From Bacteroidia bacterium (GTDB lineage Bacteria > Bacteroidota > Bacteroidia > SpSt-205): a DNA stretch of 64,000 bases. Location: NCBI GenBank assembly GCA_025062295.1, contig JANXAJ010000003.1, positions 16,099 through 80,098 of the forward strand, given 5' to 3'. Positions 1-10,896 of this stretch are shown here, one piece after another. Position 1 is the first letter of the stretch; each line of letters starts with the position of its first letter. A model generated the notes under the pieces. That model saw nothing but the letters and a program-made list of their open reading frames with translations. It ran no database searches and was not told the DNA's origin. The translations under genes were made by a program, and so were the position numbers.

Positions 1-1185
1 TCTTTAGTGCTTTTGGCGCTACCCATGGGGCTTCTCATGGCAGGACTTATGACGATGGGCAATCTGGGGGAACGGCTAGAGATTACTGCTCTCCTAACAG
101 CTGGAGTGCCTTTTATTCGTATCCTCTCTCCGCTACTCTGGAGCGGCTGCGGAAGCATCCTCCTCGCCGCCATTCTCTCATGGTATCTCATTCCTCAAGC
201 CAACATAAAGCTTTATACTCTACTTTATGACATGGAACAGGCCAAGCCAGCTTTAGCCCTCAAGCCTGGCTTCTTCAATCGGTGGATAGATGGCTATGCT
301 ATACGGATTGGGCGCATTCTGGGAGAGTCTCACCTTCGCGACATTCTTATCTACGAGTATGCTCCAGATGGAAGTATAGAGCGAACGATTGTAGCCGATT
401 CGGGAATCTCTTTCATAGAGAAAGAATGGCTCTTCCTAAGGTTTGTCTTATATGGGGGCTGTCAGGTGGAGACAATCCTCAAACCTCAACACTCACCAGC
501 TTGGAGTGAAAGCTGTTTTGATAGCTTAGAGCTGCGCTTAGATATTTCCGGATTAGGTTTGCGCCGGTCAGATGAAAAGCTCTTTGCTGGACACCAGTAT
601 ATGCTTCCAATCGGTGCTCTGAGAAAAGCAGTGGATAGCTTGAGACGCACCTGCCGTCAGACTGAAGAAGAGATATATGCCGCCCTCAAGGTAAGTTTTC
701 CTTCCCCTCGCCAAGGTACTGCTGAAGTCCCTAAGGGTATTCAATCTACTTCTTTTTCTTATGAGGCGGAAAATCTTCTGCGTCGCGACCGAAGCTTGGC
801 TGAATATCATGCTCAGAGGCTAAGACAGCTTCATGAGACTCTCTGGCGATATGAGCTTGAGTGGTGGTATAAATTTGCCTACCCCTTAGCTACGATTGTT
901 TTTCTTGTCCTGGGGGCTACTTTAGGGGGAGTCATTCGGAAAGGGGGATTAGGAATGCCTCTTGTGGTCTCTACGGCTTTGTTCATACTATTCTACATTT
1001 TGAATGCCCAAGGCAAAAAGCTTGCGCGAGAGGGAGTCCTGCTGCCTATTATTGGCGCTTTCTTACCCCTTCTCGTGATTATACCTGTTGCACTTTATCT
1101 CCTGCTTTTAGTCACTACAGAAGCCCGATGGCTCTATTTAGATTTTTGGCGCAAAAAGATAAGACAGTGGCGCGGGTCCTCGTAA
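1..1185 (+). CDS. LptF/LptG (YjgP/YjgQ) family LPS export permease, 5'-truncated by the window edge. The ORF track starts it at GTG 7, but the frame is open back to nt 1.
   Basis: Multi-TM protein with a large central soluble domain (IYEYAPDGSIER...) and C-terminal TM helices typical of LptF/G. There is no stop between nt 1 and 7. Confidence 0.65.
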   Translation, partial: SLVLLALPMGLLMAGLMTMGNLGERLEITALLTAGVPFIRILSPLLWSGCGSILLAAILSWYLIPQANIKLYTLLYDMEQAKPALALKPGFFNRWIDGYAIRIGRILGESHLRDILIYEYAPDGSIERTIVADSGISFIEKEWLFLRFVLYGGCQVETILKPQHSPAWSESCFDSLELRLDISGLGLRRSDEKLFAGHQYMLPIGALRKAVDSLRRTCRQTEEEIYAALKVSFPSPRQGTAEVPKGIQSTSFSYEAENLLRRDRSLAEYHAQRLRQLHETLWRYELEWWYKFAYPLATIVFLVLGATLGGVIRKGGLGMPLVVSTALFILFYILNAQGKKLAREGVLLPIIGAFLPLLVIIPVALYLLLLVTTEARWLYLDFWRKKIRQWRGSS

Positions 1186-2132
1186 TTCAGACGGCTTTTT
1201 TAGGAGATGCTTTACTGACCCTTCCTCTTATCCGACGTTTGCAAGAGGCATTTCCATCGGCAGAAGTTCATTGGCTTCTTCGCAAAGGGAACGAAGAACT
1301 ATTTGAGCAGCATCCGTGGAAGTTCCGACTTTGGACTTGGGATAAAAGCTGGCGTGATTTTCTTCGTTTATACCGAGAGCTTTCACAGCTTGAGTGGGAG
1401 GGGATTATCGTAGTTCAACGCTTTTTTAGGATGGGACTGCTTGGATGGCTGTTAAAGGCTCGGTGGCGCATCGCTTATGATAAAAGCCCTTTGAGCTTTC
1501 TCTACACTCATGCTGTGCCCCACGAAGTGAGGGAAGGGGTTCACGAGACGACTCGGGTTTTAGCTCTTCTTCGTCCGCTGGGTTTCTCTCCCACACTTCC
1601 TCCTCCGCCATGGCTTTTTCCTTCTGAGTTACCCTTCTTCAAGAAGCCTTACATTGTAGTGGCTCCTGCTTCCCGTTGGGCAACGAAGGAAGCCCCACTG
1701 GAGTATTGGGCTCGCTTCCTTCAGCAGGTACCCCTGACCTATCATGTATATCTTACAGCCGATGCTTCGCAGTGGGCTAAGCTGGAGAAGCTGACTGCTT
1801 TTCATCCTAAAGTGGAAAATGTGGCAGGCAAACTGTCTCTCCGAGAGGTGGCAGCCCTAGTAGCTGGAGCCGAACGGCTCTACACGGTAGATAGTGCGCT
1901 TACTCACTTTGGCTCTGCCCTGAATGTGCCCACAACGACCATATACTGCTCAACCCTCCCAGCGTTCGGGTTTGGGCCACTCGCCCCTGGAAGTGAAGTA
2001 GTAGAAACTCCGCTACCCCTTGCATGCCGCCCCTGCGGCATCCACGGACGACGAACCTGTCCCCTAAGCCATTTCCAGTGCGGGCATACCCTTCCTTTAC
2101 CGCAGATGAGGGAAAAGTATCCTCTCAGATAG
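1128..2132 (+). CDS. Glycosyltransferase family 9 (ADP-heptose:LPS heptosyltransferase)
   Basis: N-terminus VLVIQTAFLGDALLTLPLIRRLQEAFP matches the GT9 heptosyltransferase start. An in-frame GTG at 1167 is an alternative start with less overlap of the upstream gene. Confidence 0.75.
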   Translation: MALFRFLAQKDKTVARVLVIQTAFLGDALLTLPLIRRLQEAFPSAEVHWLLRKGNEELFEQHPWKFRLWTWDKSWRDFLRLYRELSQLEWEGIIVVQRFFRMGLLGWLLKARWRIAYDKSPLSFLYTHAVPHEVREGVHETTRVLALLRPLGFSPTLPPPPWLFPSELPFFKKPYIVVAPASRWATKEAPLEYWARFLQQVPLTYHVYLTADASQWAKLEKLTAFHPKVENVAGKLSLREVAALVAGAERLYTVDSALTHFGSALNVPTTTIYCSTLPAFGFGPLAPGSEVVETPLPLACRPCGIHGRRTCPLSHFQCGHTLPLPQMREKYPLR

Positions 2133-2323: not shown

Positions 2324-5300
2324 CTATTCCTCTTGATAGGTAATAATAAGGTTATCTCCTGGTCTGATAGCATCAGAAGAGAGTCGGTTAAGCATGCGAA
2401 GCTGCTCTACCGAGACATTATACTTTTCAGCAATTGAGAAGAGAGTTTCCCCCCCTTGCACCTCATGGATACGAGCGCGAGGGAGCTTCTTATGAGAAGG
2501 AATTTCAGATGTGATTCTAGGATCCTCTAAGAAGAAGCGACGCCGCTCGGCTCCTGTGAGGAGGCGAAGGTTTTGCTCATAGGCAAAATCAATCAGGGCC
2601 TGCTTATCAGGAAGGAGAGGATAAAGTAGGACTGCACCTTTTGCCCCTGGCACGACCAGCAGCTTTCCATCTGGGCTAAAAGCTGGCTTGAAATAAATGT
2701 GAAGAGGGAAAGGATACTCTGTCAGTTGAAGGAAGGAGCGACCACTCCAAAGCCGCGCCCGCTGATCGGTACCAATAGAGAGAATATGAAGTCCTGTTGG
2801 ACTCCACTGGACCGCATAAGGAATGCCCTTATGCCCATGGAGGGTACTCAGAAGCCGTCCAGTGGGAACCTCCCATACACGAAGGGTAGAATCAACCCCA
2901 GCAGTAACAACTTTCGTACCGTCGGGACTGAAAGCCGCAGCTTTGAGAGCTCCCCGATGCCCTTGCAGTCGGGCCATGAAACGTCCATCCCAGCTCCAGA
3001 GAGAAGCTGTCCCATCCTCGCTCAGAGCTAAAATAGCCTGTTCATCTGGCGAAAGGAGGACTTGGGAAATCGGCCCATCATGAGCCTGTAGTCGGGTCTG
3101 ATTCAGCTCGGATATTGATGGAAACAGATACAAAACCCCTCCTTGAGTACTTATCACAGCGCGCTTGCCGTCACGAGTTAGAGCCCCGTGCAATACTTCA
3201 CTCTCCACTCTGAGAGTATGAAGAAGGGTCCCTGAGGAGCCCTGCCAGAGCCGAGCCGTCTTGTCCAAAGAAGTGGTCAGAACTACACTACCATCTGAAG
3301 ATAAAGCAACATGAGTCAGATTATCTCTATGACCCCACAACCGAGCTGTGCTCTGACCCTTACTCAAGTCCCACACCCGAGCTGAGAAATCCTCTGCTAA
3401 GGAAACTAAGAATCGGAGATCCTGAGAAAAATATACTTTCTCCACAATATGGGTGTGTCCCTTGAGCACTTCTTGAGAAGCACCTGTCTGGACATCCCAC
3501 ACCCGAATGGTTTTATCCCAGCTGGCAGTAGCCAAGCTTTTGCCATCTGGACTAAAAACAGCATACACTACGCGATTCTTGTGCCCGATGAATCGTTTCA
3601 GAGGCTTAGGGTAGAGAAGAGCGTGAAGGGCGTAGTAGAGAGCCGCTTCCGCTTCTTCTACATAAGGTCTTTCCTCAGGAGCACCGATAGTACGGGGGAG
3701 GGCTTCCATAGCAAGCCGAGCCCCAATCTCGGGCTTACCCTGCCTAGTTTGATCCTCTGAGAGAGCCGCTAAGAAGAGAGACTGAAGGATTAGAGCCTTA
3801 TTGCGCTGGATAACAGCAAGTTTAGTTTGATATTCCGCTTGATGACGATCGTGCTCTGCATTGATGCGAGCAGCATCGGCAAGCCGAGTCTGATTTTCAG
3901 CAATCCGCTGCTGGATGAGAGCCCGCTCACGTTCAAGCTCGGCTATTCGGCGCTGAGTCTCAGCCACTTGACGCTGCTTCTCTGCATTCAACCTCTCTGC
4001 CTGAGCAATGCGTAACGCATTCTCTGCTAAAAGCTTTTGTTGAAGGGCAATAAGCCGCTCTCTTTCAGCAACAAGCTGTTGATAGCGGGCTTCGGCAGCG
4101 TTTTTTTCAGCAAGCATTCGCTGCTCTTGGGCAATCTGAGCTTGACGACGAGCTTCAGCTGCATTCTTCTCCGCTAAGAGCCGCTGAGTCTGAGCATAAT
4201 AAAGTGCTATCAAACTCAGAAGGAAAAGAATTGTAATCACCGCCAGAGCCAAGAGCAGAAGGCGCCGATTCCTCTCTATGCGAGCCTTACTTCTGGCAAG
4301 GTAAAGCTCAATCGCATCTCGTAGCGCAATCGCCTGAGTGAGAGGCTCCACATCAGGAACAAACTCCTCAGGAGGAATATAGCGGCGCATCCAAGCCGGA
4401 TTCGGGCGCCGCTCATAGTACCATTCAGAGAAATACTGATATGCCCCTCCACTCAGAAGCAGCCGAACATTCTGTTGGGCAGCAAGCCAACGCTGCACTT
4501 GAAACTTGAGTTCCCTAAAGATCCGAACGCTCTGCGCCTCTGACTCTGCCCACCGAATGAGCCGATCCCAATTCCGAATAAGAGCCTCATGGGAAATAGT
4601 CAGAGTATCTGTAGGACTGAGCTCATAGGAGGCTCCCTCCAGAAGGATAGGCTGAAGAAAGCTGACTTGCGGGAAGCGAAATAGCGCTGCCACCCGTGCT
4701 ACCACTGCTGAAGTGATTCCTTGCATGCCCAGAATGTCTGTAATCTGCTGAAGGGTAAGTCGTGCCCGAACCGCTCGCCCTTCATCAATCCGAGTGAGTG
4801 AGACAAAAAGAGTCTGAGCAATCACCTGAAGAAGCTCCAAGGAAAGCGCCTCTCCATACTGCTTCTCATATAAAACATCAAGATGGGAATAAAGCCATTC
4901 TGCGTGAAAGTTAAGTACATTCCGAAGTTTTGGGCTCTCGTAGAGGTCTTTCTCCACCTGGGGGAGGCTTGCAAGATACTTCTCAAAAAGAGGGCGGTCT
5001 TGTTCAGAGAGTTTATTAGCGCTGAGTCCACCTACCATAGCGTAATGGAGGAGGTCCAAGGGCTCCTTGCCTTCCTGAGCGGCATGCCAGATTCGATGAA
5101 GTACATGCTGAAGCACAGGTAGTTGATCAATCCCATCTCCTAAGTCATTCAGAAGGCGCTGAGTGAGTCGGGGAGTGATGCGTTCTCCATTCAGTTCCAC
5201 CGGTTTCTCTATCACCGCCTGAAACTCCTCCCGACTCAGGCGAGGGACAAAATAGGTGCTCTCTCCAATCAGCTCAGCAAAACCATGAAAGGCCACACAC

Positions 5301-6853
5301 TGACCAATGAAGTCAGAACGCATGGTGAAAATCACCCAAATCGGCAGATTATCGCGCTGGGCAATGCGAATCGTTTCAGAGAGCACATTCACCGTGATCT
5401 GCGCAAGAGGAGAAGCAACTCCAGCCGAGTAATTCTCCTCATTCGTGAAAAACTCCTCAAACTGATCCACTAAAACAAGGAGGTTCTGACCTTCTCGCAG
5501 GCGAAGAAGCTTTTCCTCATCTGGAAGCCGCAAGAAATCTGGAGCTGTTGGGTCTATGTAAGCCTGGGACTCTTTATACAACTCTACAAGGGCAGAAAAG
5601 CCGTAAGATAGACGAGTTTCTACTCGTCCAACATCACTATAGCCAAGAGCGCTGGCAAGGGCACTCGCTAAGTTTGTAAGGGGTTGCTTTTCGGGACGAA
5701 AAGCTGCAATAGCCCACCCTGGATAGGGAGCTGACATGAGATTGGCTCGAAGGGCTGGCAGTACGCCAGCAAAGACCAACGAAGACTTCCCGTCCCCCGA
5801 AGAGCCTGTTATCATGATGAACTTTTTCTCCCTCAGTTGTTCTAAAATTTTACTAATGTGCCGCTCACGCCCATGGAAAAAGACTGCCTCTTTTTCTTCA
5901 AAAGGACGCAGACCAATGTAAGGACAAAGGTGGGGTGTATCTGGCCAGACAGAAGTGCTTCGGGCTTCAGCCAGAGCAGTCGTTATTTCCTCCTCCAAAT
6001 TTTCAGGCTCTGTAAGGCGAAGACGAATATTAGGCACTTGGATAGAAAGATGACGATTCCGCACAGGGGTTGGCAATCCTAAAAGAAGCATAGGGGTTGG
6101 TCGGCTTAGCCCGCCGCCTGCCTTCCAGATCTGCTGTGCAAGGGAGACGGCCCAGTCTCCTGCCCGATGAAAAAAGAGGACTAAAAGCTGACTCTGCTGA
6201 TAAAGACGAAGAGCTTCTGCAGTATCAGCTTCTGCTACTTCTGGCCGAAAAGAGAGAGATTGCAGGCGATAGCGTTGTGAAAGTGTCTCTACTAAGGAGA
6301 AGCAGCTCGCTGCATCTCGTACGTTGTGAATAAACCCGATTTCATACTGCTTGACCGCTTGTCGAGCTTCTACGGCTTCACTGAGAAAAGCTCGGACCTC
6401 ACCAACTAAAAGAGGTAAGCTTGAGGTACGGGTGAGCATTACCCGCTCTGTCAGGGTATTCTCAACATGAGTCAGAAGCTCTTGCACCTCCACATCATAC
6501 AGCGCAGTCTCATCCAATGGTGCCCAAATCAGCAGTCTGAAGGTCGGAGAGACTTGCTGAAGTAGCGCATCATATTGGCGCCGCAGCAGAAGCGACCCAT
6601 CAGGAAGAATAGGTCCTTTAGTAGTGCCAATAATCAAGAAAGCCGCATCATAGCGCTGCCCCACTTGTGAAAGAACTATCGGATTATACTCTCCACCCAC
6701 TTCCACCTCATAGCCCGCATTCTTGAGCATAATGCTGAGCACCTCTCGGCGGGTAGAATCGGCTTCAGCCGTCCATCCCACCCATATGGAAAGGACCCTG
6801 ACCCCTTCCCCAGAAGAAGGAGCAGTTACAACAGCCTGCATATGATTAGACAA
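2324..6853 (-). CDS. 1509-aa multidomain protein: duplicated N-terminal alpha/beta domains, STAND-type P-loop NTPase, one TM helix, coiled coil, WD40 beta-propeller and C-terminal LysM
   Basis: PYIGLRPFEEKEAVFFHGRE motif precedes Walker A (ITGSSGDGKSS) and Walker B (LLVLVDQFEEFF). Hydrophobic segment LLLLALAVITILFLLSLIALYY follows. Next comes an A/E/R/Q-rich heptad region (LAEKNAAEARRQAQIAQEQRM...), then at least 8 WD40 units (GH..V..V.FSPDG...S.D.T.R.W). A LysM (GETLFSIAEKYNVSVEQLRMLNRLSSDAIRPGDNLII) sits at the C-terminus. Confidence 0.8.
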   Translation of the reverse strand: MSNHMQAVVTAPSSGEGVRVLSIWVGWTAEADSTRREVLSIMLKNAGYEVEVGGEYNPIVLSQVGQRYDAAFLIIGTTKGPILPDGSLLLRRQYDALLQQVSPTFRLLIWAPLDETALYDVEVQELLTHVENTLTERVMLTRTSSLPLLVGEVRAFLSEAVEARQAVKQYEIGFIHNVRDAASCFSLVETLSQRYRLQSLSFRPEVAEADTAEALRLYQQSQLLVLFFHRAGDWAVSLAQQIWKAGGGLSRPTPMLLLGLPTPVRNRHLSIQVPNIRLRLTEPENLEEEITTALAEARSTSVWPDTPHLCPYIGLRPFEEKEAVFFHGRERHISKILEQLREKKFIMITGSSGDGKSSLVFAGVLPALRANLMSAPYPGWAIAAFRPEKQPLTNLASALASALGYSDVGRVETRLSYGFSALVELYKESQAYIDPTAPDFLRLPDEEKLLRLREGQNLLVLVDQFEEFFTNEENYSAGVASPLAQITVNVLSETIRIAQRDNLPIWVIFTMRSDFIGQCVAFHGFAELIGESTYFVPRLSREEFQAVIEKPVELNGERITPRLTQRLLNDLGDGIDQLPVLQHVLHRIWHAAQEGKEPLDLLHYAMVGGLSANKLSEQDRPLFEKYLASLPQVEKDLYESPKLRNVLNFHAEWLYSHLDVLYEKQYGEALSLELLQVIAQTLFVSLTRIDEGRAVRARLTLQQITDILGMQGITSAVVARVAALFRFPQVSFLQPILLEGASYELSPTDTLTISHEALIRNWDRLIRWAESEAQSVRIFRELKFQVQRWLAAQQNVRLLLSGGAYQYFSEWYYERRPNPAWMRRYIPPEEFVPDVEPLTQAIALRDAIELYLARSKARIERNRRLLLLALAVITILFLLSLIALYYAQTQRLLAEKNAAEARRQAQIAQEQRMLAEKNAAEARYQQLVAERERLIALQQKLLAENALRIAQAERLNAEKQRQVAETQRRIAELERERALIQQRIAENQTRLADAARINAEHDRHQAEYQTKLAVIQRNKALILQSLFLAALSEDQTRQGKPEIGARLAMEALPRTIGAPEERPYVEEAEAALYYALHALLYPKPLKRFIGHKNRVVYAVFSPDGKSLATASWDKTIRVWDVQTGASQEVLKGHTHIVEKVYFSQDLRFLVSLAEDFSARVWDLSKGQSTARLWGHRDNLTHVALSSDGSVVLTTSLDKTARLWQGSSGTLLHTLRVESEVLHGALTRDGKRAVISTQGGVLYLFPSISELNQTRLQAHDGPISQVLLSPDEQAILALSEDGTASLWSWDGRFMARLQGHRGALKAAAFSPDGTKVVTAGVDSTLRVWEVPTGRLLSTLHGHKGIPYAVQWSPTGLHILSIGTDQRARLWSGRSFLQLTEYPFPLHIYFKPAFSPDGKLLVVPGAKGAVLLYPLLPDKQALIDFAYEQNLRLLTGAERRRFFLEDPRITSEIPSHKKLPRARIHEVQGGETLFSIAEKYNVSVEQLRMLNRLSSDAIRPGDNLIITYQEE
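3830..4210. repeat. Imperfect in-frame tandem repeats encoding the coiled-coil segment of the 1509-aa protein
   Basis: Repeated DNA blocks such as gcattcttctccgctaagagccgctg and gcgtttttttcagcaagcattcgctg. At protein level there are two 21-aa units (LAEKNAAEAR...) followed by degenerate heptads. Confidence 0.4.
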
Positions 6854-6984
6854 ATATACAGAAAAAGCCTTTGGAGCAGTCCAGAAGGAGGCAAAGACTC
6901 TTCTTCCAGAGAGGGAAATGCGAAGAGCTCAGTTGGAATTCAAACCTATGGAAAATTGCAGGGGGCATCCTTTACTTTTGCAGC

Positions 6985-8367
6985 GTGCCATCTATAGCAG
7001 AAATTTACGCCTCTCCACCAATAGGTCAGCTTCTCAAAGTAGAAGGATGGATTCGCACACGCCGAACGACTCGAACTGTGAGCTTCGTAGAGCTGCAAGA
7101 TGGCTCCACACTCAAAGCCCTCCAACTGGTCCTATCCCATGAAAAGATCTCCTTAGACCGAATAGAAGCTACCCTTCATACAGGTGCCAGCATAGCTGTA
7201 TGGGGCATTCTTCGCAGCACGCCTGATCGTCCTCAGCCCTTTGAGATAGAAGTGGAAGACTTTATCCTCTACGGAGAGGCTGACCCTACTACTTATCCCC
7301 TCCAGAAAAAAGCTCATTCCTTAGAATTTCTGAGAGAGATCAGCCATTTGCGTCCTCGCACACGCACTTTTCAAGCTATTTTTCGTATTCGCAGCGGGCT
7401 CTCTTTTGCCATTCATCAGTATTTCCAAGAACGAGGATTCGTATATGTCCATACGCCGATTTTGACGCCCTCTGACTGTGAGGGCGGGGGTCAGCTCTTT
7501 CAGGTAACCACGCTGGCCTTGGAGGCTCTCCCTCGTCATCCTGACGGTCGGATTGCATATGAAAAGGACTTCTTCGGACGACCAGCTTATCTCACCGTCA
7601 GCGGTCAATTAGAGGGAGAAATGTTGTCCATGGGACTTGGCAAAATCTATACTTTCGGGCCTACCTTCCGTGCTGAACCTTCTCATACCCCTCGGCATTT
7701 AGCTGAATTTTGGATGATTGAACCTGAAATGGCATTCTATGACCTTGACATGACAATGGACTTAGCAGAGGACTTTCTCCAATTTCTCACTAAAGCAATT
7801 CTTCAAAGACATAGAGAAGAACTGGAGTTCCTAAGAGAGCACTACGAAGAAAAGCTCATCCATGAGCTTGAGAAGGTGGCAGAGAGCCGTTTCATCCGCC
7901 TCTCATACACAGAAGCTATAGATATCCTGAATAAAAGTGGGAAATCCTTTCAGTTTCCTACGAGCTGGGGCAGTGATCTTCAAGCTGAGCATGAGCGCTA
8001 CTTAGTAGAGGAGTATGCGGGGCAGCCAGTCATCGTTTATAACTATCCAAAAGAGATCAAGGCATTCTATATGCGTCAAAACGATGATGGACGCACTGTA
8101 GCTGCTTTTGATGTGCTTTTCCCTCGGATTGGAGAAGTGATTGGAGGATCTCAGCGGGAGGAACGCTACGAACAGCTCCTTCGGCGCATGGAGGAAAGGG
8201 GTATGGACCCCTTCCCTTATCAGAACTACTTAGACATTCGGCGCTATGGCAGCGTGCCTCACAGCGGATTCGGACTGGGCCTGGAACGATTTCTCCTTTT
8301 TCTTACTGGAATGACCAATGTCCGAGATGTAATCCCTTTTTTCCGTTCAGCTGGCCAGATGGCCTAA
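6985..8367 (+). CDS. asnS: Asparaginyl-tRNA synthetase
   Basis: Class II aaRS motifs FRAEPSHTPRHLAEFWMIEPE and GGSQREERYE. The ORF track starts at 6871, but the N-terminus aligning to AsnS (PSIAEIYASPPIGQLLKVEGWIRTRR) begins at in-frame GTG 6985. Confidence 0.85.
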   Translation: MPSIAEIYASPPIGQLLKVEGWIRTRRTTRTVSFVELQDGSTLKALQLVLSHEKISLDRIEATLHTGASIAVWGILRSTPDRPQPFEIEVEDFILYGEADPTTYPLQKKAHSLEFLREISHLRPRTRTFQAIFRIRSGLSFAIHQYFQERGFVYVHTPILTPSDCEGGGQLFQVTTLALEALPRHPDGRIAYEKDFFGRPAYLTVSGQLEGEMLSMGLGKIYTFGPTFRAEPSHTPRHLAEFWMIEPEMAFYDLDMTMDLAEDFLQFLTKAILQRHREELEFLREHYEEKLIHELEKVAESRFIRLSYTEAIDILNKSGKSFQFPTSWGSDLQAEHERYLVEEYAGQPVIVYNYPKEIKAFYMRQNDDGRTVAAFDVLFPRIGEVIGGSQREERYEQLLRRMEERGMDPFPYQNYLDIRRYGSVPHSGFGLGLERFLLFLTGMTNVRDVIPFFRSAGQMA

Positions 8368-8538: not shown

Positions 8539-9057
8539 TTAGGTGGGCTGAAGCTGACGCTTTTGAACGAAAGCAGAAAGAATATCACCGTAGCTGGGAT
8601 GACGACTGGCCAGAAACTGAACTCCAAGGAGGACAGCCCCTTGAGCATCATAAGGACGAGTGAAACTTACAGGGTAGCCACGCACCGTCTCAAATATGGT
8701 TTCCAAATAGGTCTCTGGAGCACTCTCATTAGGACATGGCATAATAATGAGAGGCTGCTGTATAGTTACAGAAGCAACAATAACGGGAAGCAAATAGGCA
8801 CTGCGTCCAGCTGCCCATACACAAACACTTGCACCTAAATTTTCTATCACTGAACGCAGGGCACCTATCGTTGGGTGGATCGGCAGAACCTCCTCACGAT
8901 AAAATATTCCCATTTGGGAGAGAATGGAACGAGCTTCCTCTAGCGCGTTAGAGCTTTCAAAAGCCTCTCTAAGCAGGACAATCTCTGAGCGGCTCATGGA
9001 GCAAAGATAGAGGTTTTCTAATGTACTTTTGAGGGATGAGGGGTGCGCGCTTGCCAC
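8539..9057 (-). CDS. Hypothetical protein, possibly an alpha/beta (LUD-like) fold; function unknown
   Basis: Intact 172-aa ORF divergent from ftsX. I recognise no diagnostic motif with certainty. Confidence 0.35.
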   Translation of the reverse strand: MASAHPSSLKSTLENLYLCSMSRSEIVLLREAFESSNALEEARSILSQMGIFYREEVLPIHPTIGALRSVIENLGASVCVWAAGRSAYLLPVIVASVTIQQPLIIMPCPNESAPETYLETIFETVRGYPVSFTRPYDAQGAVLLGVQFLASRHPSYGDILSAFVQKRQLQPT

Positions 9058-9887
9058 TTACTCATTCCCTTATCAGCCTCATGCTCTCTTTATTCGTTTT
9101 AGGAATCTATGGTCTTTTCCTGCTGGCGGGGCAGCTTGTCTTAGAGCAAGCTCGGTCAGGGTTGGAGTACCGAATTCATCTCTACGCTCCTATCTCAGCA
9201 GAGCAGGTGGAAGCCGTGCTTCGGTGGCTGCGAAGTCAGCCCCTCGTCCGTGAGGCTCGATACGTCTCTCCGGAGGAAGCTATGAAAGGCTTTGCCCAAG
9301 TGGCAGGAGAAGAGTTCGTCCAAGCTATGGAAGGCTTCAATCCATTCCCTCCTACCTTTCAAGTCAGCTTCCATGGCGAACTCGTGACCGCCGACAGCGT
9401 CTTAATTTTTTCCCAGCGAGTCTTAGAATGGGAAATCGTGAAAGAAGTAGATTATCCCCGCCGTCTCTTAGAGGTATTGGAAAAACGAGCTCAGATTCTC
9501 AGATGGGTAGGTCTGCTTATTGGCACGCTTATTGTCATCATCGTCTTCCTCCTCATATTCCATAATGTGCGACTGGCTATATTTGCACGGCGCTTAGAGA
9601 TCCGAACCATGGAACTCGTTGGAGCCACCCGAGCATTCATCCAGCGCCCTTTCCTCTTAGTAGGTCTATTTCAAGGGCTTCTGGGGTCTATTCTAGCTAT
9701 TATCCTCCTGCATATTGGGCTTCTTCTTATACATTCTTTTCTTTTGCCTCTGGACTTCCTGCTTCAGGATTGGCGCTTAGGAGTCCTATATGGAGGGCTG
9801 ATTATTTTTGGAATCCTTGTTGGATATGCGGCCAGCCGCTTAGCTATCCAGCGGTTTTTAAACCAGACTTTAGAAAGGCTTATATGA
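9036..9887 (+). CDS. ftsX: Cell division permease FtsX
   Basis: Four-TM topology with a large periplasmic loop between TM1 and TM2. Typical FtsX C-terminal TM cluster and length of about 283 aa. Confidence 0.8.
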   Translation: MRGARLPLTHSLISLMLSLFVLGIYGLFLLAGQLVLEQARSGLEYRIHLYAPISAEQVEAVLRWLRSQPLVREARYVSPEEAMKGFAQVAGEEFVQAMEGFNPFPPTFQVSFHGELVTADSVLIFSQRVLEWEIVKEVDYPRRLLEVLEKRAQILRWVGLLIGTLIVIIVFLLIFHNVRLAIFARRLEIRTMELVGATRAFIQRPFLLVGLFQGLLGSILAIILLHIGLLLIHSFLLPLDFLLQDWRLGVLYGGLIIFGILVGYAASRLAIQRFLNQTLERLI

Positions 9888-10138
9888 GCAGAAAGCAGCA
9901 TACAGAATCATCCTCTCGGAAGTTTCCTTCTAAAAGCCCCACGCCCGATATGCCCTTTCATCGGGGCAACTACCGCTGGCTTATGGGAGGCATCCTCCTC
10001 CTTTTGATGGGCTACAGTGGGCTTCTCATTCCTAATGAATTTGTAGATAGCAAACAGTTCTCCATCTCTTTGTATGTAGCACCTTGGCTTATACTTGGCG
10101 GATTTTTAGCTCTTATCTACGCTATTCTCAAAAAATGA
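9884..10138 (+). CDS. Small membrane protein (DUF3098-like) conserved between ftsX and uppP in Bacteroidetes
   Basis: 84 aa from ATG 9884, with two TM helices (WLMGGILLLLMGYSGLL, VAPWLILGGFLALIYAIL). Stop overlaps the uppP start (ATGA). Confidence 0.55.
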   Translation: MSRKQHTESSSRKFPSKSPTPDMPFHRGNYRWLMGGILLLLMGYSGLLIPNEFVDSKQFSISLYVAPWLILGGFLALIYAILKK

Positions 10139-10896
10139 GCTGGTGGGAGGCAGTTCTCTTAGCTGTAGTGGAGGGGCTCACAGAATTCCTTCCTATTTCC
10201 TCTACTGGCCATTTGATTCTTCTGAGTGCATGGCTGGGACGGGCAAAAGAAGCCTTCGTTCAGGATTATGAGATTATTATTCAGGGAGGGGCTATTTTGG
10301 CAGTACTTTTCCACAGCTACCGAAGGCTCTATCAGTGGCGACTCTATCTTCTTTTGTTAGCGGCTTTCTGCCCCACTGCCTTTATTGGTGTATTGACCAA
10401 AGAGTACATAGAAGGACTTTTAGGTTCGCCGGCGGTCGTAGCCATCAATCTCATCTTGGGGGGTGTGATACTGATCCAGATGGATCGATGGTTCTTGCAG
10501 GCTCATCGGCCTATAGAATCGTTAAAGATGTGGGAGGCAGGCGTAATAGGTCTTATTCAAGCTTTGAGCTTAATGCCTGGCATCTCTCGAGCAGCTGCCG
10601 CTCTCTTTGGGGGACGACTGGTTGGGCTTTCTCAGAGCGATGCTGCCGAATTCTCTTTTCTCTTGGCAGTGCCTACGCTGACCGCTGCTTCAGCCTATAA
10701 GGCATACAAAAGCCCCGTGGCTCTTTCCCCCGAGACTCTTCCTCTGCTCGGAATCGGAATAGTGGTAGCCTTTGGAGTAGCTACTTTTGCTATGCAATTT
10801 TTGATTACCCTCTGGCGACGATATGGGCTTTTGCCTTTCGGAGTCTATAGGATAATACTGGGTAGTGGAGTCCTTATATGGGTGAGCTTATCTTAG
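10135..10896 (+). CDS. uppP: Undecaprenyl-diphosphatase (UppP/BacA)
   Basis: MSWWEAVLLAVVEGLTEFLPISSTGHLIL is the canonical UppP N-terminus. The second motif PGISRAAAAL is present. Confidence 0.85.
   Translation: MSWWEAVLLAVVEGLTEFLPISSTGHLILLSAWLGRAKEAFVQDYEIIIQGGAILAVLFHSYRRLYQWRLYLLLLAAFCPTAFIGVLTKEYIEGLLGSPAVVAINLILGGVILIQMDRWFLQAHRPIESLKMWEAGVIGLIQALSLMPGISRAAAALFGGRLVGLSQSDAAEFSFLLAVPTLTAASAYKAYKSPVALSPETLPLLGIGIVVAFGVATFAMQFLITLWRRYGLLPFGVYRIILGSGVLIWVSLS

Follow-up and report, generated by a model that had tools for sequence, protein, structure and literature searches.

A predicted transmembrane nSTAND1 NTPase with a coiled-coil stalk, WD40 propeller and LysM domain from a large Bacteroidota family

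The analysed window, a 64 kb stretch of DNA from a Bacteroidia bacterium, has on its minus strand an ORF (2324..6853) coding a STAND NTPase that is very probably a single-pass inner membrane protein, with its amino terminus inside and its carboxyl terminus outside. The topology is deduced from hydrophobicity, conservation and domain identity. The protein is a member of a large uncharacterised family of Bacteroidota, and, judged from the gene order of related loci, it is a fusion of a conserved two- or three-gene system. The order TIR-like module, nSTAND1 NTPase and WD40 propeller is the tripartite order of STAND proteins, with a transmembrane helix and a stalk inserted before the sensor.

Architecture and predicted topology of the window protein

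The ORF codes 1509 amino acids when counted from the TTG codon at 6853 and ends with the stop codon at 2324-2326. The probable true start is the ATG at 6841 (1505 amino acids), since the amino termini of orthologs align at M5, four codons after the TTG, and the NCBI copy P0001 (1505 amino acids, 100% identical) also begins there. Residue numbers given here are those of the ORF, starting at TTG 6853. Features are all encoded in the minus strand.

The NTPase with its winged-helix and helical arm spans residues 311-836 (4346..5923), as delimited by Pfam and the AF2 model. The Pfam profile nSTAND1 (PF20703) scores 233.7 bits (cut-off 27.1; E 7e-69) over residues 311-611 plus a second stretch that is recovered when residues 612-860 are scanned separately. 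The lead-in PYIGLRPFEE..FFHGRE precedes the NTPase. This lead-in, the Walker A motif GSSGDGKS (residues 350-357; 5783-5806), the Walker B motif LVLVDQFEE (residues 458-466, including D463; 5453-5482) and the TMRSD motif (residues 510-514; 5312-5326) are invariant across 38 homologs, in line with the assignment to STAND NTPases made in the preliminary description from the lead-in, P-loop and Walker B. The sequence places the NTPase in the nSTAND1 type and not in the NACHT type; NACHT is absent both from the 25 best of 49 Pfam families matched (E up to 1) and from the scan of residues 612-860. When the NTPase sequence was compared with the PDB, nothing beyond P-loop noise from UvrA came back. 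Most of the NTPase has a pLDDT of 80-94 in the AF2 model, whose overall value is 83.9.

The sole hydrophobic segment of the protein, LLLLALAVITILFLLSLIALYYA, follows the NTPase at residues 865-887 (4193..4261) and is predicted to form a single transmembrane helix. Its Kyte-Doolittle 19-mer mean is 3.08, compared to 1.62 for the next best segment, and its approximate Hessa-scale sum is -5.7 kcal/mol, compared to +4.6. The 23 consecutive apolar or small residues include no charge and, apart from T874, S880 and the terminal YY, no polar residue. The helix follows a juxtamembrane stretch rich in K/R, SKARIERNRR, and is flanked by six K/R at its amino-terminal side and three at its carboxyl-terminal side, a bias that holds family-wide. 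No amino-terminal signal peptide was found in the window protein. In the AF2 model residues 837-1037 form one continuous 200-residue helix that includes the hydrophobic segment and does not pack it as a core helix.

This feature is not a peculiarity of the window protein. Of 120 database homologs, nearly all have exactly one hydrophobic peak, about 520 residues past the P-loop, and all complete genome-derived homologs feature one at the same post-NTPase position (about 160 complete relatives checked, plus Nostocales). The nSTAND1 proteins of Nostocales have the same single-helix layout after the NTPase. Position and hydrophobicity of the helix are kept across phyla while its sequence diverges. 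The clade had been described as normally soluble; the sequences compared indicate that in this nSTAND1 branch the membrane helix is the rule and not the exception.

The helix is followed by a predicted periplasmic coiled-coil stalk (residues 888-1037; 3743..4192). Residues 887-1026 are composed of 20 uninterrupted heptads of the pattern A-E-x-Q-R-x-[L/I]. Every seventh position between 887 and 1020 is an alanine, with a conservation of at least 82%. These ~140 residues correspond to a length of roughly 21 nm. The stalk has 197-200 amino acids in all orthologs, down to 41% identity. The stalk was modelled as a monomer, hence its low pLDDT of about 46-50. An antiparallel hairpin was considered for the stalk and set aside, the 20 heptads running without break, Gly or Pro and AF2 predicting one helix.

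A helical cap (residues 1038-1085; 3599..3742), modelled by AF2 as two helices with high pLDDT, connects the stalk to an eight-bladed WD40 beta-propeller (residues 1086-1412; 2618..3598). The Pfam WD40 profile matches six stretches (E 6.5e-47; 156.4 bits), while the AF2 model has 32 beta-strands that make eight blades with pLDDT above 90 and Foldseek matches it to eight-bladed propellers (target-normalised TM-score 0.89). WD40 propellers also dominate the Foldseek comparison of the large model with the PDB, where the NTPase and WD40 parts align loosely with Apaf-1. Orthologs are single-copy and conserved, and their propeller has no indels and diverges only slightly faster than the NTPase. A short helical linker in the AF2 model (residues 1413-1458; 2480..2617) leads to the carboxyl-terminal LysM (residues 1459-1509; 2327..2479). 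The Pfam match to LysM PF01476 covers residues 1463-1505 (45.3 bits, cut-off 20.9; 8.6e-12) and AF2 gives the segment a beta-alpha-alpha-beta (E-H-H-E) fold. NCBIfam yields only LysM-bearing families, which match no more than the last 50 residues. By its identity the domain is a putative cell-wall-binding one. It is absent in the more distant orthologs P0024-P0026.

The inside-to-outside topology is thus deduced from the conserved single helix, its continuity in the AF2 model, the LysM domain and a paralog, P0038, in which periplasmic GldM D2-D4 domains come after the same helix. The parts announced in the preliminary description, namely one strongly hydrophobic helix after the NTPase, a repetitive coiled coil, at least eight WD40 blades and a LysM, are those found here. 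Its placement of the NTPase in the cytoplasm and of coiled coil, WD40 and LysM outside gains good in silico support from hydrophobicity, the K/R bias, AF2, LysM and the GldM paralog. Three observations that could have undone it went the other way: AF2 puts the hydrophobic segment in an unpacked helix and not in a buried core, the LysM score is more than twice its cut-off, and the relatives, although numerous, are uncharacterised and do not form a commonly annotated family of known cytosolic function.

The N-terminal module, the family and its partner genes

The ~300 amino-terminal residues are predicted to fold as two tandem TIR/flavodoxin-like domains. Domain 1 (residues 22-164; 6362..6790) is a DUF4062-like or TIR-like alpha/beta domain, and domain 2 (residues 170-299; 5957..6346) is a flavodoxin/TIR-like alpha/beta domain with invariant D180, D233-W234 and R265-N266. 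The TIR-like fold of DUF4062 and TIR-like NADases is thus predicted for this module. Neither this region nor its version encoded by an upstream gene in relatives had been noticed in the preliminary description. A Pfam scan of the first 309 residues of the window protein gave no match, including to DUF4062 (PF13271). DUF4062 or TIR_2 matches are seen for the module in orthologs, with PF13271 found at E below 0.1 in 5 out of 17 of them and scoring 35.9 bits for P0023 (cut-off 24.7). A profile of the ortholog modules has the DUF4062 domain of KpSwz as its best solved relative, at a marginal E of 0.004.

In that marginal alignment the position of the catalytic glutamate (KpSwz E97, TEP1 E1008) is taken in the window protein by an arginine, R91, with no glutamate within one residue at either side. 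The same column has a glutamate in P0025 and P0026 and in 51 of the ~180 module sequences with a residue there (about 29%). By this alignment the module of the window protein lacks the glutamate needed for DUF4062 catalysis, and it is more likely a scaffold or adaptor than an NADase.

At least 482 relatives, mostly of Bacteroidota, were confirmed in GTDB species genomes, a number at odds with the rarity implied when the layout was reported as unfamiliar. Most relatives have no effector domain in the NTPase polypeptide and their P-loop lies at about residue 48. In about 50 loci the amino-terminal module is instead the product of the gene directly preceding that for nSTAND1-TM, as in one locus where a 16-bp gap separates the two genes (L086). 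The reading of the window protein as a fusion relies on this separate upstream gene. In many loci the separate module is fused to a TIR domain, or to Guanylate_cyc and TIR domains; the TIR of the partner genes is canonical, with a W-x-x-E motif, and the nucleotide cyclase is of class III. A second paralogous NTPase gene is often present. The locus had been viewed as a single-gene system. This holds for the window protein, which is a fusion, but not for relatives, which have the separate module gene, TIR or cyclase domains and often the second NTPase. The carboxyl-terminal 750 residues of 1350-amino-acid relatives have no Pfam match.

The STAND gene is bracketed by genes coding a GT9 heptosyltransferase (1128-2132, plus strand) and AsnRS (6871-8367, plus strand), as expected from the earlier report of convergent or divergent housekeeping genes on both sides. 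Envelope genes are abundant around it in the window (LptF/G, GT9, FtsX, BacA). Neither a second copy of the amino-terminal module nor a second nSTAND1 gene was found in the 64 kb. In each of the four contexts examined, the gene or its ortholog is surrounded by housekeeping genes; none is a defence island. Synteny of orthologs, including the envelope-gene neighbourhood, is not conserved among the contexts compared, so that the neighbours give no clue to function. Signalling genes coding PP2C, SiaC and HATPase proteins recur beside relatives, with PP2C and SiaC (partner-switch signalling) being recurrent neighbours of both the WD40-type and the GldM-type, and SLATT genes are found near some relatives. 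PADLOC assigns neither the NTPase nor the amino-terminal module nor the relatives to a known or candidate defence system, Avs and other anti-phage STAND systems included. Its output for the window protein consists of a WD40-driven match to HEAT-ARM_XIII (3.5e-8) and noise, and that for relatives and partners of a weak match of the partner cyclase domain to Pycsar PycC.

Proposed mechanism and alternative readings

Taken as a whole, a model of the window protein as an envelope or peptidoglycan receptor signalling from outside to inside is held with evenly balanced confidence. In the cytoplasm would lie the two-domain TIR-like (DUF4062-like) module and the nSTAND1 NTPase, whose Walker A, Walker B and TMRSD motifs are intact. 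A single helix emerging from the NTPase arm would span the membrane at residues 865-887 and run on as the 20 heptads, with the eight-bladed propeller and LysM at the far end. The stalk helices would associate in parallel into a coiled-coil oligomer with a fixed length of about 21 nm. It would keep the propeller as far out as the peptidoglycan or outer membrane, and LysM would bind glycan strands there. A change in ligand occupancy or in peptidoglycan state at the propeller and LysM may then move or cluster the rigid helices. The NTPase would thereby be able to exchange its nucleotide and oligomerise, and the amino-terminal modules would be brought together. The autoinhibition usual in STAND proteins, with the sensor packed on the NTPase, would not apply because membrane and stalk separate the two. 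Since the separate modules of relatives often bear a canonical TIR or class III nucleotide cyclase, the family probably has signalling by nucleotides or NAD+ cleavage as its output. Some features count against this model. WD40 propellers of the canonical type are usually cytoplasmic, and, with E. coli dimensions, a stalk of 21 nm and a propeller together seem long for the gap between inner membrane and peptidoglycan. The family also has features of conflict systems: the TIR domains, a cyclase weakly similar to PycC and nearby SLATT genes.

These last features would fit a dedicated abortive-infection sensor in which the periplasmic propeller and LysM detect a phage component or phage-made peptidoglycan damage. 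The STAND protein would oligomerise, and NAD+ would be depleted or a death signal made, either by its own TIR-like module or by a TIR protein recruited to it. Such a role is consistent with the definition of nSTAND1 within conflict systems (PMC8195603), with DUF4062 proteins being TIR-like NADases in phage defence (bioRxiv 10.64898/2026.05.01.722283) and with the suggestion that bacterial NACHT proteins bearing transmembrane segments sense periplasmic signals (10.1101/2022.07.19.500537). It is nevertheless considered doubtful: NTPase and module have no PADLOC model, the catalytic glutamate is missing in the window protein, by the marginal alignment, and the surroundings are of housekeeping type in each context examined. 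Orthologs look vertically conserved with a stable, indel-free sensor, and the recurrence of PP2C and SiaC beside WD40- and GldM-type relatives also argues against it. As the biological role, monitoring of the envelope or peptidoglycan state, with a signal passed from outside to inside, is preferred here to such a dedicated device.

Signal flow in the opposite direction is rated unlikely. A cytoplasmic, ATP-driven NTPase would control how a peptidoglycan-anchored scaffold spanning the periplasm is assembled or which state it adopts, making the protein an organiser or tether of the envelope like TolA, GldM/PorM or FimV/HubP and not a sensor. The strict, ruler-like stalk length, the LysM anchor, the GldM periplasmic domains fused in one paralog, the lack of an effector domain in the NTPase polypeptide of most relatives and the envelope genes around the window gene are compatible with this role. 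However, the conserved module and the TIR and cyclase partners point to a cytoplasmic signalling output, P0024-P0026 have no LysM to serve as anchor and the envelope-gene neighbourhood is not shared by orthologs. STAND NTPases, moreover, are said to be switches and not motors, a view attributed to Leipe et al. in 2004. Highly improbable is a fully cytosolic protein of the TEP1, NWD1 or Apaf-1 type, whose helix does not span the membrane and whose LysM is incidental or repurposed. Its canonical WD40 propeller has cytosolic proteins as nearest structures, Apaf-1 aligns over NTPase and WD40, and DUF4062-NACHT-WD40 is a known cytosolic architecture. Yet the uncharged 23-residue run and its hydrophobicity values, the preservation across phyla of hydrophobicity and position but not of sequence, the unpacked 200-residue helix of AF2 and the location of LysM (window protein) and GldM D2-D4 (paralog) after the helix all oppose it.

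Comparison with known systems and implications

The nSTAND1 clade (PF20703) was named by Kaur, Iyer, Burroughs and Aravind (eLife 2021; PMC8195603). The window protein shares with it an NTPase far above cut-off, the lead-in and Walker motifs and a WD40 repeat sensor, as in many members, but the published members have soluble conflict architectures with adaptor domains. No mention of a helix between NTPase and sensor, of LysM or of a conserved upstream module gene was found in that paper. A literature search did not find the nSTAND1-TM-WD40-LysM layout, only general remarks on STAND or conflict proteins bearing transmembrane segments. The DUF4062-NACHT-WD40 proteins TEP1, NWD1 and NWD2 have a TIR-like DUF4062-type domain, a STAND NTPase and WD40 in the same order. 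The window protein differs from them by its nSTAND1 NTPase, an extra alpha/beta domain after the DUF4062-like one and the transmembrane helix with 21 nm stalk between NTPase and propeller. The bacterial DUF4062 NADase Swarozyc (bioRxiv 10.64898/2026.05.01.722283) provides, as KpSwz, the nearest solved relative of the amino-terminal module, though its E97 is aligned, marginally, with an arginine of the window protein.

A STAND NTPase is combined with a membrane segment, and intramembrane or periplasmic sensing is proposed, also for bacterial NACHT proteins with carboxyl-terminal transmembrane segments (Kibby et al., 10.1101/2022.07.19.500537) and for the NACHT-TM-CLec targets of diversity-generating retroelements (PMC10907252). 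Those proteins usually have several transmembrane segments or a C-type-lectin sensor, without the periplasmic coiled-coil ruler, WD40 or LysM, and are mentioned in passing and uncharacterised. In the iSTAND ternary and GTPase-centric conflict systems (Kaur et al., eLife 2020; PMC7159879) a transmembrane segment is likewise followed by cell-wall-binding domains (PEGA, OmpA, PASTA, SH3), which was taken as action near the wall. There, however, these parts belong to vWA or GTPase components and not to a STAND NTPase, and LysM and WD40 are absent. TolA, GldM/PorM and FimV/HubP share the single membrane helix, amino-terminus-proximal in their case, followed by a long rigid periplasmic span; LysM is common to FimV/HubP and the window protein, and GldM D2-D4 is found in one paralog of the family. 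They have neither a cytoplasmic STAND NTPase nor a TIR-like module.

Toll-like receptors have a cytoplasmic TIR domain, and LysM ectodomains recognise peptidoglycan or chitin. The window family looks like a bacterial counterpart of such transmembrane immune or cell-wall receptors, by analogy with Toll-like receptors and the plant LysM receptor kinases (CERK1/NFR), which join an external repeat or LysM ectodomain through one helix to a cytoplasmic signalling domain. Homology of the whole proteins is not implied: the orientation is reversed in the window protein, with the amino terminus inside, an NTPase switch lies between TIR-like module and membrane, and the repeats are WD40 and not LRR. It is tentatively proposed that the Bacteroidota and cyanobacterial family comprises transmembrane NLR-like receptors that sense attack or damage to the cell wall before cytoplasmic entry. 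A periplasmic ectodomain (WD40 and LysM, GldM domains or an uncharacterised 750-residue domain) would be carried on a fixed-length coiled-coil ruler, and the STAND switch would act on TIR-like, TIR or cyclase outputs. If true, the family would correspond in bacteria to Toll-like receptors and LysM receptor kinases, and its activation would occur without the sensor packing against the NTPase.

To our knowledge, mechanistic models of STAND and NLR proteins all assume a repeat sensor folded back on the NTPase in one compartment. With sensor and NTPase split by the membrane and a ~21 nm rigid stalk, activation would have to differ, through helix movement or clustering. The conserved operon of two or three genes (a module gene, TIR and cyclase being optional, and one or two membrane NTPases) and its natural fusion, the window protein, offer two experimental handles. 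If the topology holds, they would give access to a large unstudied receptor family that couples peptidoglycan or outer-membrane events to TIR-like or cyclic-nucleotide outputs in Bacteroidota, a phylum important in gut, rumen, soil and water.

Gene organization and domains of the fused protein

The minus-strand ORF at 2324-6853, taken for a gene in the preliminary description, is real. It has 1509 codons if counted from TTG 6853, the numbering followed here, and its product has a database twin from a Bacteroidia MAG (P0001; 100% identical, 1505 aa) annotated as 'LysM peptidoglycan-binding domain-containing protein'. Four codons past the listed TTG (window 6841-6853) lies an ATG that is the start both of this NCBI entry and of every ortholog; since the alignments of all orthologs begin there, the true start is probably 6841. 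The divergent AsnRS ORF listed from 6871 likewise probably starts later than listed.

Pfam identifies in the protein an nSTAND1 NTPase (PF20703; 233.7 bits, cut-off 27.1), WD40 repeats (6.5e-47) and a LysM domain at residues 1463-1505 (45.3 bits, cut-off 20.9), while LysM-bearing families confined to the last 50 residues are the sole NCBIfam matches. The NTPase motifs quoted in the preliminary description are present and invariant across 38 homologs. Its assignment of NTPase, WD40 and LysM stands, including the identity of the C-terminal domain, but it overlooked an N-terminal module of ~300 residues with two tandem TIR-like (DUF4062-like) domains.

Housekeeping and envelope genes surround the window gene (LptF/G, GT9 heptosyltransferase, AsnRS, FtsX, BacA), the former as initially described, and base composition is unremarkable. 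The envelope-biogenesis genes code for the LptF/G permease, GT9 heptosyltransferase, FtsX and BacA/UppP (7-2132 and 9036-10896); their presence may be a coincidence because orthologs lack such a neighbourhood. A 172-aa ORF at 8539-9057(-), weakly matching AIR-carboxylase (PF00731), overlaps by its 5' end the start of the opposite-strand FtsX ORF by about 20 bases.

Membrane topology and the predicted ectodomain

The NTPase (residues 311-836) is followed by the hydrophobic segment LLLLALAVITILFLLSLIALYYA (residues 865-887). Its Kyte-Doolittle mean is 3.08 over 19 residues, the runner-up segment of the protein reaching 1.62, and its Hessa biological hydrophobicity sum is about -5.7 kcal/mol versus +4.6 for the next segment, both sums on the 2005 scale being approximate. 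Six K/R residues lie on its N-side and three on its C-side, and the protein has no N-terminal signal peptide. The position of the helix in homologs is the decisive, comparative argument for a predicted membrane span. Nearly all of the 120 listed homologs have exactly one hydrophobic peak ~520 residues past the P-loop, with quite different sequences and a K/R bias consistently on the N-side. The same single peak is found in all complete proteins rebuilt from 77 genome loci and in cyanobacterial nSTAND1 proteins (Nostoc, Anabaena, Richelia). In an AlphaFold2 model of residues 311-1509 built from a 38-sequence alignment (mean pLDDT 83.9), segment 865-887 is not a buried core helix; it lies unburied inside one unbroken helix of residues 837-1037.

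A single span places the NTPase and the C-terminal half on opposite membrane sides, and the requirement of the NTPase for cytoplasmic ATP sets an N-in/C-out orientation. The regions following the helix are of extracytoplasmic type, LysM in the window protein and the second, third and fourth domains of GldM in paralog P0038. In GldM itself these domains are periplasmic and come after a single N-terminal membrane helix. The conserved single peak, the K/R bias and the downstream LysM or GldM domains give good in silico support to the topology initially proposed, with the NTPase inside and the coiled coil, WD40 and LysM outside, which is very probably correct. The 622 predicted periplasmic residues (888-1509; window 2327-4192) are devoid of cysteine, while three cysteines occur in the 864 cytoplasmic residues.

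Directly past the span, 20 uninterrupted heptads A-E-x-Q-R-x-[L/I] position alanines at 887, 894 and onward to 1020, which are at least 82% conserved among 38 orthologs and paralogs though the region is only about 30% identical. Membrane and propeller are 197-200 residues apart in each of the 24 orthologs, the most divergent of which share 41% identity; for the WD40 paralogs of 1085 aa the spacing is 178-185 residues. Because the heptads are unbroken, the alanines conserved and the spacing constant across orthologs, this signature is that of an obligate coiled coil of predicted fixed length, a stalk whose 140 residues would measure about 21 nm. Its low pLDDT (about 46-50) is expected for an oligomeric coiled coil modelled as a monomer.

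Two capping helices lead from the stalk to a canonical eight-bladed WD40 propeller (32 strands, pLDDT >90), in agreement with the eight or more blades previously counted; Foldseek matched it to eight-bladed propellers with a target-normalised TM-score of 0.89. The propeller of the window clade is free of indels and its divergence only slightly outpaces that of the NTPase (71% versus 86% or 39% versus 54% identity, for example), so it is not a rapidly diversifying sensor. A short helical linker then precedes LysM. The most distant orthologs (P0024-P0026) lack this domain, which would thus serve as an accessory anchor rather than as the core of the sensor.

The N-terminal module and the membrane-STAND family

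A search with the module profile against 1.84 billion representative proteins matched 1025 of them at E <=0.001. The module occurs alone (about 290 aa), behind a TIR domain (about 530 aa), as Guanylate_cyc + TIR + module (about 705 aa) or as LRR + TIR + module. Profile search of neighbours found it at about 50 family loci in the gene immediately upstream of the one for the membrane NTPase (nSTAND1-TM), with E-values of about 1e-17 to 1e-83, mostly below 1e-35; at locus L086 16 bp separate the two genes. Paralogous membrane NTPases often occur as tandem pairs. In Rhodohalobacter mucosus a TIR+module gene is followed by two successive nSTAND1-TM genes. No second module or second NTPase gene lies within the 64 kb window. 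As its relatives carry the module immediately upstream, the window protein is the naturally fused version of a conserved system that otherwise has two or three genes, and not the unusual single-gene exception that it had been thought to be.

Many Bacteroidota have a three-gene operon (L090 6383-16112; L015, L017-L021, L024, L028, L039, L046). Its first gene encodes a product of about 530 aa (TIR+module) or about 705 aa (Guanylate_cyc+TIR+module). Two tandem paralogous nSTAND1-TM genes come next, the first typically for about 1350 aa and the second for about 1180-1250 aa; in L090 both products have 1351 aa. Each of these NTPases has a single membrane helix, and its C-terminal domain, helical and unrecognised, spans about 750 residues. 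Five tandem DUF5128 paralogs (L090 1-5886) precede the Rhodohalobacter mucosus operon.

As a 2026 preprint shows, DUF4062 domains are TIR-like NADases whose catalytic Glu is E97 in Klebsiella KpSwz and E1008 in human TEP1 (bioRxiv 10.64898/2026.05.01.722283). KpSwz is the best solved relative found with the ortholog module profile (E 0.004), and in this marginal alignment the Glu at its chain position 82, equated with E97 because the published construct begins at residue 16, aligns with R91 of the window protein. Among roughly 180 module sequences with a residue in this column, 51 have Glu (about 29%) and 37 Gln (about 21%); a nearly invariant Gln lies two residues further. Close orthologs have R, K or L, and the most distant P0025 and P0026 keep Glu. 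The module of the window protein is thus probably not an NADase, within the limits of this marginal alignment. Strong conservation across both its domains (Q93, W110, N132, D180, D233-W234, R265-N266) suggests that a binding or assembly function is kept.

When each GTDB species, represented by one genome, was scanned with a degenerate pattern, at least 482 relatives were confirmed among the 600 stretches listed. The 77 loci kept from the matches listed belong nearly all to Bacteroidota and close allies (Chitinophagales, Cytophagales, Sphingobacteriales, rumen Bacteroidales, Saprospiraceae, Hymenobacter, Balneolaceae, Chlorobi), with few Nostocales. In 101 proteins the membrane helix leads into a helical, unrecognised domain about 750-970 residues long, in 58, window clade included, into coiled coil and WD40, and in 2 into GldM D2-D4; one protein (L058) falls outside these three clusters. 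The window clade (module-NTPase-TM-stalk-WD40, LysM being optional) is found only in a set of Bacteroidia MAGs, single-copy and with variable neighbours that are always housekeeping genes. Behind the gene of ortholog P0010 lie genes for a GH3 + beta-lactamase fusion, HSP90 and an M23 peptidase with LysM (L001 10524-16041); these peptidoglycan-related neighbours are absent around the window gene. The cyanobacterial nSTAND1 proteins (L080, L081, L083 and L084, from Nostoc, Anabaena and Richelia; 1560-1800 aa) have an N-terminal TPR region and continue past the NTPase with a single hydrophobic helix, then a coiled coil and finally WD40 repeats, so the membrane-spanning layout is not confined to Bacteroidota.

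Relatives of the WD40 and GldM types repeatedly have as neighbours genes that encode PP2C phosphatases (SpoIIE), SiaC, DUF6272 or HATPase_c. Such partner-switch-type genes, TPR-SpoIIE included, lie at L086 2923-6574, L091 2931-3867 and 10388-11659, and L093 10781-11968. In L093 (7126-11968) a standalone module gene precedes the gene of P0038 (8001-10751; nSTAND1-TM + GldM domains 2-4) and a SpoIIE (PP2C) gene comes after it; the P0038 fusion hints at a link to the periplasmic apparatus of gliding or type IX secretion. SLATT genes, whose domains are predicted pore-forming conflict effectors, are near two loci: an LSDAT_prok-SLATT_1 gene adjoins a TIR+module gene (L085 4982-7771) and the Rhodohalobacter operon has a SLATT_1 gene in its vicinity (L090 18417-19928). 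PADLOC has no known model for the system.

Known systems and a possible role in envelope signalling

By score and motifs the window protein belongs to nSTAND1, and by available models not to NACHT or Avs. It shares its order of parts with TEP1 and NWD1 (DUF4062-STAND-WD40) but differs from them by NTPase clade, membrane span and the missing catalytic Glu. That certain NACHT proteins possess TM regions and might detect periplasmic signals has been stated briefly (10.1101/2022.07.19.500537; PMC10907252), and TM and wall-binding domains were noted on other conflict-system components (PMC7159879). The literature searched describes neither the nSTAND1-TM family nor its heptad ruler, nor the WD40/LysM and GldM ectodomains or the obligatory upstream module gene of the family. 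Toll-like receptors and the LysM receptor kinases of plants offer the closest functional analogies, though no more than analogies. nSTAND1-TM is a large, conserved and uncharacterised membrane-STAND system of which the window protein is a fused member.

The protein could be a parallel coiled-coil oligomer that would keep the propeller a constant distance away from the inner membrane while LysM grips peptidoglycan. Ligand binding, loss or change of the wall, or tension may act as trigger at the propeller or LysM. Since the sensor would be unable to touch the NTPase, the signal would pass via the rigid helix or by clustering, allowing the NTPase to exchange nucleotide and oligomerise, and gathering the N-terminal modules. 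Family outputs would be nucleotide-based, through TIR, cyclase and Glu-bearing DUF4062-like modules; the module of the window protein seems to lack catalytic activity and might serve to recruit or template partners.

The same architecture could serve a dedicated abortive-infection role, a doubtful reading at present, or an inside-out structural role, which is less probable still. A fully cytosolic protein, at odds with the N-in/C-out topology, is highly improbable. The favoured reading, held at about even confidence for the model as a whole, is that of an outside-in receptor which would serve in signalling or surveillance of the state of the envelope.
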